A stretch of 64,000 bases of DNA from IMG/VR virus record IMGVR_UViG_3300046523_000117; one strand, written 5' to 3'. The position numbers and the translations under genes were made by a program. The notes beneath the pieces are model-generated. The model saw nothing but the letters and a program-made list of their open reading frames with translations, was not told the origin of the DNA and searched no databases. Positions 43,564-50,009 of the stretch are shown one piece after another; the stretch's first letter is position 1; each line of letters starts with the position of its first letter. Source of the stretch: a virus (taxonomy: Duplodnaviria > Heunggongvirae > Uroviricota > Caudoviricetes).

Positions 43564-43571
43564 TATAAATA
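43564..43571 (+). promoter_or_regulatory. Late promoter TATAAATA (long fibre)
   Basis: Exact consensus, divergent from rnh as for T4 gene 34. Confidence 0.85.
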
Positions 43572-43638: not shown

Positions 43639-46600
43639 ATGAGCGGACCACAAGCAAAACCATTCAAAGCCAGATTGGGTATTGATGCAAACAATGAAAA
43701 AGTCATCAATGTCAAAGATCCATCAGACAATACAGACGCGATAAACGTACAGTATTTGGTTGCAAAAAACACTGTACCACAATTTGATGCAACAAGGGCG
43801 TACCCAACCGGGTTCATCGTTGAGCGTTCTGATCGTTTATACAAAGCTAAAGCGGCCATTTCAGTCGGGGCATTTGATCTAAACGCATGGTCTGAAATTC
43901 ATGCATTCAACCTATGGCAACGGATCGCGGGTGCTTATACAGCAGAACCCGGCGACTGCCTACTGTTGAACACAGCATCCAGTTCTGTAACGATTACTCT
44001 ACCAGTGGTCGTGGAAGAAGGTGATATGGTCTATATCATCGATGAAGGTACGGCATCAACCAATCCGATCATTTTGAGTGCTGGTACAAACACATTTAAC
44101 AACAGCGGTGTGTCAACCTATTCAATCAATTCGTCTGATACAACTCAGGTTGTGTTCTTGGGTGGTACATGGCGTGTTATTCGTATTGCACGACCACAAT
44201 ACCAACTGATTAACTCAAATCAAACTGTTGCACCAAACACATTCAACTATGTTCAACTGGCAGCAACTCCGATTACAGTTATCCTACCGATTAACCCGAT
44301 TCAAGGTCAATGGGTGGTGGTTGCAGATGGTGTATCCAATGCATCGAATTATAACATTACTATCAACGGTAACGGTAAGACGATCAGCGGTTCTGCATCG
44401 TATGTAATCAACCGCAGTGGTAGTATCGTTTCGATGTTATACGATCAACCGTCTGGTGAATGGAAAGCTGTTAGCGTAGCCAGTACCGGGCGTAGAATGG
44501 AAACCCTGACCCCGTTGGTCAACCAAAGTGTATTTGTTACATTGGATGGCACGGCCAAAACTTTGAACCTACCGGTTTCAACTTCGGTATCCGATGGTGA
44601 TTGGGTTGAAGTAATTACTAAGTTCCAAGATACAGTAGCTACAGGATCGTTGGTAGTAACAGCATCTGGTGGTGGGTTCTTCCGTATGAATGGTGCGGCT
44701 CAAAACACCACAACATATAGAATCAAGCAACGTAGTAAAACATTGTTCCTATACAAAGGTGGTGAATGGTCGATATTCACAACTAACGACACAACAGCGG
44801 TTCCTGCAATTTCTACCGGATCGATGATTTCAAATTCCTTTGTCACCCTTACAGGTGCATCAGGTCAAACCATCCTGTTACCGCAAAATGATCAAGTGAG
44901 AATCGGTGACACCGTTACGGCTGTTATCAACTCGACATCGTTTTCTGTTAACGTTGGTCTGCAAAACACATCCACCCAGATTCTGGATGGTGGGGTTGCT
45001 AACCTGACATATACCGCCGCTGATAACGGTCTGATGGTTACTTACATCTATCGTGGTTGGAATGGGTCCAAATATGTTTGGGAAAGTATCGTTCATGGTT
45101 CGCCATATCTGAAAAAGACTTCGAATCTATCTGATCTGCCGGACCCTAGTGTGGCACGTACCACGTTAAACGTTTACAGCAAATCAGAAGCTGATGCCAA
45201 GTTCCTAGGAGCATCTGGGTCAACCGCTGCTATGGCATTGGATACCGTTAAAGTTGGTGGTGTAATCGCCGCTCAAATGGCACAGAACACGGCAACCGCG
45301 TTGGTTGGTGACGACCCTAATACTACAGGGCTTAACTTGATTGTAACCAATCATATTAATACACCAAATGCCGGTGCAACATACTGGTATATTAACACCG
45401 TATGGACTGGATCGATTTCGAATACTTCGGCTCGATTCCAAATGGCGTATCAATACACTGGTAACCCAGCGATTGAATTTAGACAGTATAACCCAGCCGG
45501 TGGCGGCACTTGGTCTGACTGGATTACAGTTTCGACTATTGTTGATGGGTCAACATATAACATCAATATCCTTGGGTTGGCATCAACCGCATCTAAACTT
45601 AACATCGCCCGTACCATTAACGGTGTAAATTTTGATGGTACTGCGAATATCACAGTAGCTGATGCAACCAAACTGCCAACAACTGGTGGTCTAGTAACTG
45701 GCCCGATTTCCAGAGCTGGTACATCGGTTAAAGTGTATGATCAGGTTCTGTCTAAGTTTGTTGGTGGCGGTAGTGGTACAATCACCGGTACGTTGAAGGT
45801 TGTTTTACCGGTTGGTTATAATAGCACCATGATGAAAATGCATATTGGTATTTTCGATTCTGGAACTGATAAATCCAATACTGAGTTGGTGGTGGGGGGT
45901 TATAATTACTCCGGTACACCGGCATGGACTAACGTATCTGCCAGTACAAACGGTGGGCCTACTTCTGCGATTGGTCAGACTGTCCGATTCGCATTTGATG
46001 GGGTCAACAACTGCATTCTGATCGGTACTACAACATCGGTTTGGGCATACCCATCTGTAACGGTTAAAGATGTCAATCTTAGTTTCACCGGGGCCAGCCT
46101 ATCGGGTTGGGATACTGGTGCTTGGGATGCGGCTGTAATTACTAGCGAAACCGGTATTACAGTTACAGCGACCGCTGCAATTGATGTGAATATTGCGAAA
46201 CTAGATAGATCGGTCAACCTGTTTTCCGGTGAAGTTCAATCTGGTGGGATCAATAGCTACCGCCAAGTTCAGGGTAACTATGGTACGTTCTGGCGTAACG
46301 ATGGTGCTAACCTTTATCTGATGCAAACTGCGTCTGGTGATGCATACGGTACATACAACAGTTACCGTCCACTTATCATGACGTTGGCAACTGGTGCGAT
46401 GCAATCTAGCTCCAACTGGACATTTAACGCTAACCTATCGGTATTGGGTGCATTAACCGCGTCTGGTACAGCGACGTTCAGCGGGACTCATACCTTCGCA
46501 GGAACAACTACTCATAGTAACTGGTGGCGTTCTAGTGGGTCAACCGGATGGATGAGTCAAGATTTTGGTGGTGGTATTTTCATGCAGGATACAACTTGGG

Positions 46601-47034
46601 TTCGTGTATACGGATCTAAAGGGCTCTATGTATCGAACGATATCGCATCAACCGGTAACGTAATCGCGTATTACTCCGATAAACGCCTGAAAGAGAACCT
46701 GAAACCAATTGCTAATGCATTGGATACTGTAAGGTCTTGGACTGGTTACACCTATAACGCTAACGCTTTGGGTGCCTCGTTCGGATATGATCCAGAGAAA
46801 CAAGAAATTGGTCTGTTGGCTCAAGATGTTCAAGCAACTACCCCACAAGCGGTAGAACGCGCACCATTTGATACATCTGATGTTAAAGGTGGATCGCTAA
46901 CAGGTGAAAACTACTTGACCCTGAAATATGAGCGTCTAGTACCTGTATTGGTCGAAGCAATTAAAGAGCAGGATAAGGAAATTCAAACTCTAAAACAACA
47001 AGTCGCGGCACTGATCGCAGCAATTAGCAAGTAA
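43639..47034 (+). CDS. Long tail fibre: gp34-like N-terminus, gp37-like distal part, C-terminal S74 intramolecular chaperone
   Basis: FKARLGIDA..KVINV..NTVPQFDATRAY (gp34-like); NYGTFWRNDG..LYLM..G.YN..RPL (gp37-like); SDKRLKENL..LKYERLVPVLVEAIKE (S74). Confidence 0.9.
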   Translation: MSGPQAKPFKARLGIDANNEKVINVKDPSDNTDAINVQYLVAKNTVPQFDATRAYPTGFIVERSDRLYKAKAAISVGAFDLNAWSEIHAFNLWQRIAGAYTAEPGDCLLLNTASSSVTITLPVVVEEGDMVYIIDEGTASTNPIILSAGTNTFNNSGVSTYSINSSDTTQVVFLGGTWRVIRIARPQYQLINSNQTVAPNTFNYVQLAATPITVILPINPIQGQWVVVADGVSNASNYNITINGNGKTISGSASYVINRSGSIVSMLYDQPSGEWKAVSVASTGRRMETLTPLVNQSVFVTLDGTAKTLNLPVSTSVSDGDWVEVITKFQDTVATGSLVVTASGGGFFRMNGAAQNTTTYRIKQRSKTLFLYKGGEWSIFTTNDTTAVPAISTGSMISNSFVTLTGASGQTILLPQNDQVRIGDTVTAVINSTSFSVNVGLQNTSTQILDGGVANLTYTAADNGLMVTYIYRGWNGSKYVWESIVHGSPYLKKTSNLSDLPDPSVARTTLNVYSKSEADAKFLGASGSTAAMALDTVKVGGVIAAQMAQNTATALVGDDPNTTGLNLIVTNHINTPNAGATYWYINTVWTGSISNTSARFQMAYQYTGNPAIEFRQYNPAGGGTWSDWITVSTIVDGSTYNINILGLASTASKLNIARTINGVNFDGTANITVADATKLPTTGGLVTGPISRAGTSVKVYDQVLSKFVGGGSGTITGTLKVVLPVGYNSTMMKMHIGIFDSGTDKSNTELVVGGYNYSGTPAWTNVSASTNGGPTSAIGQTVRFAFDGVNNCILIGTTTSVWAYPSVTVKDVNLSFTGASLSGWDTGAWDAAVITSETGITVTATAAIDVNIAKLDRSVNLFSGEVQSGGINSYRQVQGNYGTFWRNDGANLYLMQTASGDAYGTYNSYRPLIMTLATGAMQSSSNWTFNANLSVLGALTASGTATFSGTHTFAGTTTHSNWWRSSGSTGWMSQDFGGGIFMQDTTWVRVYGSKGLYVSNDIASTGNVIAYYSDKRLKENLKPIANALDTVRSWTGYTYNANALGASFGYDPEKQEIGLLAQDVQATTPQAVERAPFDTSDVKGGSLTGENYLTLKYERLVPVLVEAIKEQDKEIQTLKQQVAALIAAISK

Positions 47035-47038
47035 TTTC

Positions 47039-47074
47039 AAGGGGCCAATTGGCCCCTTTTTTATTTGATAAATA
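47039..47074 (+). promoter_or_regulatory. Terminator followed by late promoter variant GATAAATA
   Basis: AAGGGGCC-aatt-GGCCCCTT-TTTT; GATAAATA 47067-74. Confidence 0.75.
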
Positions 47075-47106: not shown

Positions 47107-47967
47107 ATGACTACACCTGCTGGTCAAATTGCGATGTCTGATGTCAACGTCGAATTGGGCGCTGCATACAACCGTGCCAATACATCGTTAAACCTTAGTG
47201 CGGTTCGGACTCTGGCACAAGTATCGTCCGGTCAGATTTCGATGGCAAACCTCCGCAGCAAATCAAACACATTTACATTAACCATCAGTGGTGTGCAAAA
47301 CGGTAACCTTCGTAATATCGCCAACTCCAATGGTTATTCTGGTCAACCTAAAGTTTATCTAATCTTGATTGGTAACTTTTATTCTTATAATGCTGGTATA
47401 CCAGCATGTGTTGTTGGGTTCTGGCCGAATTACACACAACTTACAATCGAACTTCGCGGATCTATCCAAGCCTATGGTGGTATTGGAGGTGCTGGAGGTT
47501 ATCAGGGTTGGGGTTCGTCCGGCACTGCCGGTGGGTATGCACTTCAATTCACTAACAACATTGCCGGTGGGTCTATCACACTTTATATAAACGGTGGATG
47601 GGTTTATGGAGGCGGTGGAGGTGGAGGTGGCGGTGGGGGCGGTGTTGTCCAAACCGGTACATTTAATAACCCATCATGTTCATGGAGCACTGGTGGATGG
47701 GGTGGTAACGGGATGGGATACGGTATATTTCAATCTGGTGGTGGGTCTGGAACTAACTCCGGTGGGGATGGTTACGGCGGTACTGGTGGTTGGGGTGGTG
47801 GTTGGGGTGGTGCCGGTGCGGATGGTTCTGCCGGTGTGCAAGGCAGCCAATGTTCTGGTGCTTGGCCCGGTGGTACGGGCGGTTCCGCTGGATATGCATA
47901 CCTTGGCTGGGGTAACGTAAATAGTTACATCGGTAACACCGGCAACTATTCTGGGTTGGTGGGTTGA
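47107..47967 (+). CDS. gp38: Gly-rich receptor-recognition adhesin (gp38-like)
   Basis: Follows S74-bearing fibre; GGGGG-rich motifs separated by aromatic loops, typical of PGII-sandwich adhesins. Confidence 0.8.
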   Translation: MTTPAGQIAMSDVNVELGAAYNRANTSLNLSAVRTLAQVSSGQISMANLRSKSNTFTLTISGVQNGNLRNIANSNGYSGQPKVYLILIGNFYSYNAGIPACVVGFWPNYTQLTIELRGSIQAYGGIGGAGGYQGWGSSGTAGGYALQFTNNIAGGSITLYINGGWVYGGGGGGGGGGGGVVQTGTFNNPSCSWSTGGWGGNGMGYGIFQSGGGSGTNSGGDGYGGTGGWGGGWGGAGADGSAGVQGSQCSGAWPGGTGGSAGYAYLGWGNVNSYIGNTGNYSGLVG

Positions 47968-47999
47968 TACCACCAACTATGAACAATGAGAGTATATAG

Positions 48000-48965
48000 A
48001 TGACATATAGATACCATAGCAGATGGCGTTACGGCGACCATTTCCGAATGGCGGTCACACAAGTTACCATGAATGAATTTGCCATCCCAAGAGCTGGTAG
48101 GCTATATTCTGGTATTAGTACACCAATCGCACCGCCATCATCGATCAGTTTAAAACAATCATGTATCAACCGGGCAGTTGAAATTCTGGCAAAATATGAT
48201 GAAATCTATATCATGTTTTCCGGTGGTATTGACTCGACCCTAATTGCGGTGTACCTATGCAGTTTGGCGCAACCACACCACAAGATTACAATAAGCCAAT
48301 CCACCCAAGTTGATGAAGCCTGCGACCCAAACGTGGTAGAATGGTTGAAACAGTATTCAGTGTTCGAAGATTTTTCGATTGATACAATGAAAGCCGTAAC
48401 CGCTAGAGGTGGGATGGTTGTTACCGGTACACACGCGGATTCTATCTTAATTGGTAAACTTCTGGATGATATCGATGATCCAGCGATTTATACCGATATT
48501 TGGGATATGACCCCACACGATTTGATTGTCAAATTCACCGGGCAATCTGACCTATGGGTGGATGTTCAATTGAAGAAAATCAAACCACTAACCGATCTAA
48601 TGCCGGTTGCAATGAATGCACCCAATTTAGCATGGTGGTTGGACTTTTCTTGCCTATGGGATATGGATGAAATGAAATTCCCAATCAAATTGGGGTTGAA
48701 TGCACCGGGCAATGGGTTTATATCATTCTTCAATACCCAAGAGTTTGAAGGTTGGGCGCAACAGGATGCTAGTCAAAAGGCTGGAATCGGAATCGACCTA
48801 TATAAATATCAGTACAAAGAATTGATTATAGACATTATCAAGTTTGAACCGGTATGGCCGGGTAAAACTAAATCTGCGTCTTTACAAGAATATTCCGCTG
48901 ATACTAAGAACATTCTACAGAATATTCTGCTTGTTAATGAAAACTGGGAAACTGTTTGGAAATGA
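48000..48965 (+). CDS. Asparagine-synthetase-like PP-loop ATP-pyrophosphatase lacking glutaminase domain
   Basis: IMFSGGIDST PP-loop; VVTGTHADSIL aligns with AsnB xSGEGADEL. Confidence 0.7.
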   Translation: MTYRYHSRWRYGDHFRMAVTQVTMNEFAIPRAGRLYSGISTPIAPPSSISLKQSCINRAVEILAKYDEIYIMFSGGIDSTLIAVYLCSLAQPHHKITISQSTQVDEACDPNVVEWLKQYSVFEDFSIDTMKAVTARGGMVVTGTHADSILIGKLLDDIDDPAIYTDIWDMTPHDLIVKFTGQSDLWVDVQLKKIKPLTDLMPVAMNAPNLAWWLDFSCLWDMDEMKFPIKLGLNAPGNGFISFFNTQEFEGWAQQDASQKAGIGIDLYKYQYKELIIDIIKFEPVWPGKTKSASLQEYSADTKNILQNILLVNENWETVWK

Positions 48966-49252
48966 ATACATTTAAAGTAACCAATGTTAATTTTGATTTG
49001 GGGACGGTATCCGTTGATATCAACGTAGACCCCCATGCGATTGATATTACCCTGATGGATGTAGAACCCTATACCATCCAGCGTACATATTACATGGAGA
49101 CAATTACACCGTCTGCTGCTGCTACAGCTTCGATGCTACAGATTTCAATTGGCACATTGGTAAAACGAGAGTTGGATAAATTGTATCCACCTCCTACCCC
49201 AAAACCAATGGCACTGAATGAGTTGGTCGGTGTTGTTTGCAATATTAATTGA
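48962..49252 (+). CDS. Hypothetical protein, last in adhesin operon
   Basis: ATGA overlap with PP-loop gene; ends at terminator. Confidence 0.6.
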   Translation: MNTFKVTNVNFDLGTVSVDINVDPHAIDITLMDVEPYTIQRTYYMETITPSAAATASMLQISIGTLVKRELDKLYPPPTPKPMALNELVGVVCNIN

Positions 49253-49255
49253 TAT

Positions 49256-49285
49256 AAAAAAAGGGAGCCATTGGCTCCCTTTTTT
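49256..49285. terminator. Bidirectional terminator
   Basis: A7-GGGAGCCA-T-TGGCTCCC-T6. Confidence 0.88.
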
Positions 49286-49286
49286 A

Positions 49287-50009
49287 TTAGTCTTTTTTGA
49301 ACAACGCTGATACATCAACAGTCGGACCTTTTGCCCGCTTCATTGCTTTAGTAACACCTTCCTCTGTATACGGTTGGTCAACCTTTCTAGCGTATTCTTC
49401 ATCCGTGGTATTTTCTATCAAAATGCCAGTCTTCGCGACGTTACCATGCCCTTTGGTGCGTACCGCATCATATGGTGCGTTCTCAAGCATTTCAGCCGCA
49501 ATCTTAGTGTTCCGGTACTCTTGCTTCTCCAATCGCCCCAGATCGCCGTTGATGTCCCGTAGGATAGTCTTTGAGAATCCTTTGTGGGCTTTGATGTAAT
49601 TTAGAATCAAATTGGTCAGGATTTCGTTACGGTTAAGCGGAGTGTCTTCTAGAATGTCTTGGAATTCGGCGTGTAGATCAACCGGGATGAAAACATGGAT
49701 ACCGATCTTATCGGATTTTGACGGGGCTTTCTGTTCGGCCATCTTGTTAATCGCATTGGTTAGTAATCGAGCGGAGGTTTTCCGGTCGGCAAAGGATCGA
49801 GCGTATTCATTGGTCAGGAACCGCAGCCGTTCGTTATCGGTCTGGAACTGGGCAATTGAATCAATTAACGCTTGAGTAATGTCAGGGGCTTTCTTCGCGA
49901 TACCATCAAGGGCGATTTGGATTTCAGACCGTCTAACTCGCTTCTTGTTGGTTCCACCCTTCGGGCGTCCGGCTGATCGCTTGACTGGGATTTCTAGTTC
50001 TGTCTTCAT
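49287..50009 (-). CDS. Putative DNA-binding protein (AT-hook-like GRP motif, possible RHH)
   Basis: KRSAGRPKGG; IHVFIPVDLHAEFQDIL..NRNEILTNLILNYI. Confidence 0.5.
   Translation of the reverse strand: MKTELEIPVKRSAGRPKGGTNKKRVRRSEIQIALDGIAKKAPDITQALIDSIAQFQTDNERLRFLTNEYARSFADRKTSARLLTNAINKMAEQKAPSKSDKIGIHVFIPVDLHAEFQDILEDTPLNRNEILTNLILNYIKAHKGFSKTILRDINGDLGRLEKQEYRNTKIAAEMLENAPYDAVRTKGHGNVAKTGILIENTTDEEYARKVDQPYTEEGVTKAMKRAKGPTVDVSALFKKD

Follow-up and report, generated by a model that had tools for sequence, protein, structure and literature searches.

A stand-alone AsnB-type enzyme encoded beside one structural class of glycine-rich phage adhesin

We analyzed a 64,000-nt stretch of DNA from a tailed virus (Caudoviricetes; IMG/VR virus record IMGVR_UViG_3300046523_000117), referred to below, at its full length, as the window. 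Three plus-strand genes at 47107-49252 of the window were found to link a Gly-rich gp38-type adhesin to a PP-loop enzyme of the AsnB type and to a small protein. The enzyme has the fold and the conserved catalytic motifs of an AsnB-like synthetase domain, the three genes stay together in other phages, and the enzyme and the small open reading frame (ORF) are restricted to one class of adhesin. We tentatively prefer a reading in which the enzyme activates a carboxylate by adenylation and builds an amide bond on, or for, the adhesin. The unit had been singled out in a sequence-only reading, made without database searches, as a candidate system that may modify a receptor-binding protein by cross-linking, cyclisation or amidation, a proposal that our analysis supports in part. 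The layout proposed there, a gp38-like adhesin followed by a 321-aa PP-loop protein and a coupled small ORF, agreed exactly with the ORF coordinates.

Linkage of the enzyme to one class of adhesin

The adhesin ORF (47107-47967, 286 aa, 27% Gly) lies directly downstream of the distal fibre gene, a position kept in all related loci. Its product begins with an N-terminal adaptor domain of ~55 aa, ...SGQISMANLRSKS (47107..47271, plus strand; alignment A5), and continues as a Gly-rich gp38-type receptor-binding module, termed class IV (47272..47967, plus strand), which was assigned from alignment A3, Atlas features and the PF05268 matches of its homologues. The adaptor domain occurred in at least 110 viral loci, nearly all of them directly 3' of a Peptidase_S74 fibre gene, and its pattern ...SGxISMSDLxGKS was common to many unrelated fibre-tip proteins (window 47107-47271; L070:8077-8634; L081:7001-7894). 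In Pseudomonas phage Milchi, the closest relative by its fibre, the adaptor is fused to a 186-aa non-Gly protein, and the genes for the enzyme and the small protein are both absent. In Pelagibacter phage HTVC008M it is fused to another Gly-rich type. The adaptor domain looks like a plug that allows the exchange of tip modules.

The class IV module carries a poly-Gly tract and a C-terminus that is conserved through the last residue, Y-x-G-x-V-G/A. The window adhesin gave no Pfam match at E up to 10, Gp38_N (PF21721) included, and its homologues in L003, L005 and L167-L170 carry PF05268. By Atlas language-model features it scored 0.97 to PF05268 GP38 clusters, in which 94 of its 100 matches fell. 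The adhesin profile aligned weakly with PP01 gp38 (E 0.52), the Gly-rich motifs of the two being co-linear; the Gly patterns of the adhesin saturated the viral scan.

In a reciprocal survey starting from the adaptor domain, 84 viral loci were sorted by their tip module; in one more locus no ORF had been called for the adhesin. Results showed that the enzyme and the small ORF were present at 5/5 class IV loci and at 0/79 others. The latter comprised 36 loci of class I (ending ...IIRYKFQ), 13 of class II, 9 of class III (gp38-like, ending ...G-x-I-S), 15 with non-Gly modules and 6 in which the adhesin ORF was cut by the contig end. Because the pair was present only with class IV, the enzyme follows the structural class of the adhesin; it tracks neither the fibre nor the adaptor domain nor the place in the genome.

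The same loci were scored for 2-oxoglutarate (2OG)-Fe(II) oxygenases, which were found at 35 of the class I loci and 10 of the class II loci, at one class III locus and at two loci with non-Gly modules, and at none of the class IV loci or those with a cut adhesin ORF. These oxygenases are of the PF13640 type (prolyl-hydroxylase-like) and are encoded downstream of the adhesin gene, one or more per locus (for example, L107:7082-8975 and L102:3359-3955). The PF13640 assignment was confirmed by Pfam in three examples, and a profile derived from these served to count the remaining oxygenases. These results suggest that Gly-rich tips pair with class-specific enzymes. As a general principle, each structural class of Gly-rich phage tips might be tailored by a dedicated maturase of its own, with the AsnB-type enzyme and its partner serving class IV and prolyl-hydroxylase-type 2OG-Fe(II) oxygenases serving classes I and II, a generalization that we regard as conceivable but doubtful.

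Cassettes were examined in the window, in phage Cygsa01 (L001), and in L002-L010, L078-L080, L133 and L167-L170, together with one contig without DNA. They amounted to ~12 distinct cassettes, spread over at least four phage backbones, namely the T4-like window group, Cygsa01-like myoviruses with gp6-type baseplate genes, a Phage_fiber_2 type (L003), L133/L170 and L169. In every examined locus the adhesin gene came first, followed by an optional enzyme paralogue A and then by enzyme B and the small ORF, whose mutual order varied, with stops and starts often overlapping. Both enzyme paralogues retain the catalytic motifs. Wherever the DNA upstream of the enzyme could be read (window, L001, L003, L005, L006-L010, L078-L080, L133 and L167-L170), a Gly-rich gp38-type adhesin was present. 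The sequence-only reading had proposed a neighbourhood survey for linkage to Gly-rich adhesins, and among close homologues the survey found this linkage to be strict. The trio is best explained as a mobile cassette for host recognition.

The enzyme and the small ORF could also be unrelated cargo ("morons") that happens to lie in a variable stretch downstream of the fibre genes. T4-like genomes are known to vary after gene 37/38, and distant members of the enzyme family occur in other contexts. However, the same trio is found on at least four unrelated backbones with its order and gene overlaps conserved, and it is absent from the 79 loci that carry other tip modules at the same position, and we consider unrelated cargo very improbable.

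The enzyme, its small partner and the layout of the unit

The enzyme (321 aa; 48000..48965, plus strand, as are the motifs below) was characterized by an AlphaFold2 (AF2) model, a structure scan and its conserved motifs. The SGGIDS and TGxxAD motifs noticed in the sequence-only reading were located at residues 74-79 (the PP-loop, 48219-48236) and 142-147 (as TGTHAD, 48423-48440), and both are conserved in homologues. Residues S74, G76, D78, D147 and K269 (48804-48806) were invariant in a 63-sequence alignment of homologues, and R31, H145, W213, W220, D223, W252 and K260 were also invariant in the 27 closest sequences (alignment A2). D147 and K269 lie in the expected motifs and, as judged by motif order, are the putative equivalents of the second metal/ATP-binding Asp and the catalytic Lys of AsnB (D351 and K449).

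The AF2 model of the enzyme (pLDDT 94.4, pTM 0.92) was compared with 48,161 solved chains in a VIA scan, which is independent of Foldseek. The best solved matches were TsnB9 (Z 12.1), human ASNS (11.8), beta-lactam synthetase (BLS, 11.6), carbapenam synthetase (CarA, 11.6) and E. coli AsnB (10.2), and other PP-loop families (GMP synthase, LarE, NAD synthetase, TilS and others) reached Z ≤6.6. The top AFDB matches were "asparagine synthetase domain" proteins (template modelling (TM) score 0.63-0.75); AFDB clusters, BFVD and the ESM Atlas agreed on the fold, and the nearest Atlas clusters were mainly viral. In most alignments the match to the reference chains begins near residue 160-210, which indicates that the enzyme corresponds to the synthetase domain alone and is too short to hold a glutaminase domain as well; ~50 conserved residues precede the synthetase region of the enzyme. 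The N-terminal nucleophile (Ntn) glutaminase domain with Cys1 was absent from the 321-aa protein in the structure alignments. Fold match and alignments together bear out the earlier proposal of an AsnB-like synthetase domain that lacks a glutaminase domain.

In profile libraries the PP-loop alone was matched, by LarE (3.7e-4) and by Asn_synthase (PF00733; E 0.056), the latter missing its gathering threshold with 13.5 bits against a cut-off of 21. The enzyme had no PHROG match, and ten scanned representatives of its family matched no Pfam family above threshold; this divergent family has no Pfam or PHROG model to itself. Identity with MnmA, LarE, TilS or QueC was rejected, since only the PP-loop matches and the fold is AsnB-type. 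The two enzyme paralogues of Cygsa01 (PP179332; L001:6799-7707 and L001:7992-8948) are labelled tRNA 2-thiouridylase MnmA in GenBank; for the same two reasons this label is doubtful, and it is probably a wrong, motif-level annotation. From its predicted structure and motifs, the enzyme is best described as a divergent, phage-specific, stand-alone enzyme of the AsnB type, which would adenylate carboxylates.

With a limit of E≤0.001, an exhaustive HMMER family search of 1.8 billion proteins returned 180 cluster representatives; at E≤1e-10 it returned 36, and the close relatives numbered 18 in a set of 5.8 billion proteins. No close homologue was found in 185,579 cellular genomes, in a scan that PP-loop patterns saturated and that yielded distant relatives only; the scan of metagenome contigs, saturated in the same way, likewise yielded only distant ones. 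The sole relative found in a cellular genome was a distant one with 24% identity, at 6001-6789 of L165 (CP066682.1), a metagenome-assembled genome of Candidatus Kaiserbacteria, a bacterium of the candidate phyla radiation. Distant members were also seen in another conserved block, at about 1200-7900 of L047, L048, L058, L062 and similar loci. This block begins with a Peptidase_S74 fibre gene, a 122-aa gene, a gene of ~310-380 aa and a radical S-adenosylmethionine (SAM) protein of ~490 aa, and continues with a ~105-aa gene, a DctP-type binding protein with no evident signal peptide, the enzyme, and then large Gly-rich fibre proteins.

The small partner protein (96 aa; 48962..49252, plus strand; alignment A4 and AF2 model) has a conserved start, ATG 48962, which overlaps the enzyme TGA as ATGA and couples the two genes. 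Its family comprised 21 proteins among 5.8 billion, with the enzyme adjacent in every context examined, and the partner measures 85-110 aa across the cassettes. The AF2 model (pLDDT 80) consists of a beta-hairpin, a long helix, a Pro-rich linker YPPPxPxP and an AL..LVG tail. It had no recognisable fold match (best PDB-wide Z 3.3), and neither the Atlas neighbours nor the PDB-wide scan gave a match to a ubiquitin-like fold or to that of PqqD-like recognition elements (RRE) of ribosomally synthesized and post-translationally modified peptides (RiPPs). Kinship with the 128-aa genes behind class III adhesins was not established, as 26 N-terminal columns aligned with a probability of 14%. A complex prediction of the enzyme with the adhesin, in which the small protein served as partner, scored 0.07, which speaks neither for nor against binding. 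Given its strict adjacency and translational coupling to the enzyme, our guess is that the small protein is a specificity or adaptor subunit.

The three genes make up a plus-strand, late-type unit flanked by two terminators. The adhesin stop and the enzyme start are 33 nt apart, and a hairpin scan of the unit found no terminator between the genes. A terminator-like hairpin follows the fibre gene (47039..47058, plus strand). The closing terminator that the sequence-only reading placed after the small ORF is present as a strong hairpin of 13 pairs (49257..49285, plus strand), common to the unit and to a convergent minus-strand gene. The late promoter placed at 47067 stood as a motif and not as an exact one: the box GATAAATA (47067..47074, plus strand), with the adhesin ATG 33 nt on, matches the T4 late consensus TATAAATA at 7/8 positions. 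Such boxes in exact form, TATAAATA, are enriched across the window (8 observed vs 1.9 expected). One of them, at 43564, precedes the fibre gene; another, inside the enzyme gene (48801..48808, plus strand) and 160 nt 5' of the small ORF, is a candidate internal late promoter from which the small protein could receive extra late transcription. With T4-late-type boxes before the fibre gene, before the adhesin and inside the enzyme gene, late transcription of the unit is plausible, as judged from promoter motifs.

The fibre gene upstream (43639..47034, plus strand) ends 73 nt before the adhesin start and encodes a one-piece long tail fibre of 1131 aa with a C-terminal Peptidase_S74 intramolecular chaperone. 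Pfam matched Gp34_trimer (1.3e-20) and Peptidase_S74 (8.5e-13), and PHROG tail-fibre families were matched as well; the fibre unites in one protein a gp34-like N-terminus, the Gp34_trimer domain and the Peptidase_S74 chaperone. It shares 31-53% identity with the Milchi fibre, and Milchi and Astolliot relatives show 35-37% over the full length. The fibre is presumably the platform to which the adhesin attaches. On the other side of the unit, the convergent gene (49287-50009, minus strand, 240 aa) gave only one PHROG match, a weak one, to a transcriptional repressor (E 9e-4). Megablast of the window against phages gave no match.

Candidate substrate and competing readings

In the mechanism that we propose, the adaptor domain of the adhesin would dock on the tip of the Peptidase_S74-processed fibre. 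The enzyme would bind ATP through its intact PP-loop, adenylate a carboxylate and transfer the acyl group to an amine, with formation of an amide. Aided by the small protein, it would work at a late stage of infection, either on the adhesin itself or by attaching a small molecule to it, and the receptor-binding tip would be covalently matured before or during fibre assembly. AsnB-family enzymes adenylate carboxylates, which are then attacked by an amine, and some of them act on peptides, such as the lasso cyclases and the amidotransferase of the thiostrepton C-terminus. Since the enzyme has no glutaminase domain, the nucleophile would be free ammonia, a substrate amine or a second substrate.

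Maturation of the adhesin is favoured because the conserved C-terminus is the only carboxylate found in every copy of the module, and because class IV differs from the enzyme-less class III in a GGS-IT insertion, Y167, Y281 and a terminal Gly/Ala in place of Ser. The default target would be this strictly conserved C-terminal carboxylate, which may undergo amidation, ligation or attachment of a small molecule. A covalent link made by the enzyme between the adhesin and the cleaved end of the Peptidase_S74 fibre is unlikely, since Milchi has the adaptor and such a fibre without the enzyme.

Several observations weigh against maturation of the adhesin. The alignment of the Gly-rich module contains no invariant Lys, Asp or Glu; a side-chain isopeptide within the module is therefore unsupported, and the C-terminal carboxylate is a candidate by default only. 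Homologous class III adhesins with the similar C-terminal motif ...G-x-I-S exist without the enzyme and, to our knowledge, T-even gp38 proteins fold without an enzyme of this kind. Distant members of the enzyme family occur outside fibre contexts; in L022 (2225-8563), L020 and L023 their neighbours are thymidylate synthase and a radical-SAM-like gene, at a distance from any fibre gene, which indicates that the wider family is functionally mixed. The surveyed loci are often related, and the counts of 5/5 and 0/79 overstate the number of independent events. Finally, three cassettes encode, directly 3' of enzyme B, an SBP_bac_3 binding protein of the amino-acid type that is exported and carries a signal peptide (L003:8999-9751, L133:8523-9248 and L170:4992-5723).

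Owing to these binding proteins, a small molecule or a host envelope precursor stays the main rival substrate. The enzyme might, for example, amidate or acylate the surface structure recognised by its linked adhesin, which would mask the receptor or spare progeny from adsorption to debris, or it might make a ligand, with a specificity matched to that of the adhesin. The SBP_bac_3 proteins hint at a small-molecule substrate, and distant relatives of the enzyme are encoded next to a radical SAM enzyme and a binding protein of the DctP type. AsnB-like and other PP-loop enzymes amidate carboxylates of the cell surface, including meso-diaminopimelate in peptidoglycan and uronic acids in O-antigen, and in phage T5 the receptor-blocking llp adjoins the receptor-binding pb5. 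Against such a substrate, the window cassette has no SBP_bac_3 gene, and the enzyme tracks the structural class of the adhesin and not any host group, although few hosts are known. The enzyme is moreover coupled to the adhesin in an apparently late unit, which would leave a cytoplasmic enzyme, active minutes ahead of lysis, little time to alter the surface through envelope precursors. We hold this explanation to be rather unlikely.

Alternatively, the enzyme and the small protein could form an ATP-dependent, non-covalent factor for folding or assembly of the polyglycine module, comparable to fibre chaperones of the gp57A/gp38 type. Phage fibres commonly need dedicated chaperones, the cassette is confined to one class of adhesin, and the small protein bears a weak structural resemblance to a Phage_tail_APC cluster (TM 0.49). 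However, the adenylation motifs are fully invariant, the second paralogue included, which points to catalysis; the homologous modules of class III fold with no such enzyme; and we know of no chaperone of the PP-loop or AsnB family. A chaperone role is accordingly improbable, and covalent maturation of the adhesin is retained as the preferred reading.

Comparison with known systems

Full-text literature searches found no description of such an adhesin-enzyme cassette, in line with the sequence-only reading, which knew of no described system of this kind. What appears new here is the presence of an AsnB-type enzyme beside a virion adhesin, which it may tailor. The host range of phages is set by receptor-binding proteins, the chief target of phage engineering. 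If the adhesin is matured as proposed, the AsnB-type chemistry of peptides and small molecules would extend to a structural protein of the virion. Swapping the adhesin gene alone would then fail, adhesins not being transplantable without their enzymes, and sequence-based predictions of structure or host range would miss a covalent feature of the binding tip. If the general principle also held, host recognition would depend on RiPP-like post-translational chemistry that is invisible to genome annotation. The cassette is present in a cultured phage, Cygsa01 of Pseudomonas syringae JD03, which makes the question directly testable.

The enzyme resembles AsnB/ASNS, BLS, CarA and TsnB9 in its synthetase fold (Z 10-12 over 184-238 residues), in the SGGxDS motif, in a TGxxxD motif where AsnB has SGEGSDE and in a conserved late Lys, and carboxylate adenylation and amide formation are expected from this likeness. 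It differs in that His145 is invariant in the close clade, and the position of AsnB Glu348 is variable. Unlike BLS and CarA, it lacks even a vestigial glutaminase domain and carries the ~50-aa conserved extension instead. Its family is phage-restricted and this clade is adhesin-linked, unlike the AsnB relatives. With the tRNA 2-thiouridylase MnmA it has only the PP-loop ATP-binding motif in common; MnmA/tRNA_Me_trans models in Pfam and NCBIfam gave no match at E up to 1, and no MnmA structure was among the best 50 matches listed.

The T-even gp38 adhesins (T2, T6, S16 and PP01; PF05268) are similar in that a Gly-rich receptor-binding module is encoded directly after the distal fibre gene. They attach through a Gp38_N domain, in contrast to the ~55-aa adaptor found here, and have no linked enzyme. 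Lasso-peptide cyclase systems differ in another way: the present cassette has only three genes, with no peptidase gene and no detectable RRE, and its putative substrate is a 286-aa structural protein without a conserved acceptor Asp or Glu. Membership in a complete lasso-like system was rejected for lack of the peptidase and the acceptor residue, and the likeness is kept as an analogy. What the two have in common is the logic of a RiPP operon, in which an AsnB-like enzyme stands beside a partner of ~90 aa, with the putative substrate encoded just upstream.

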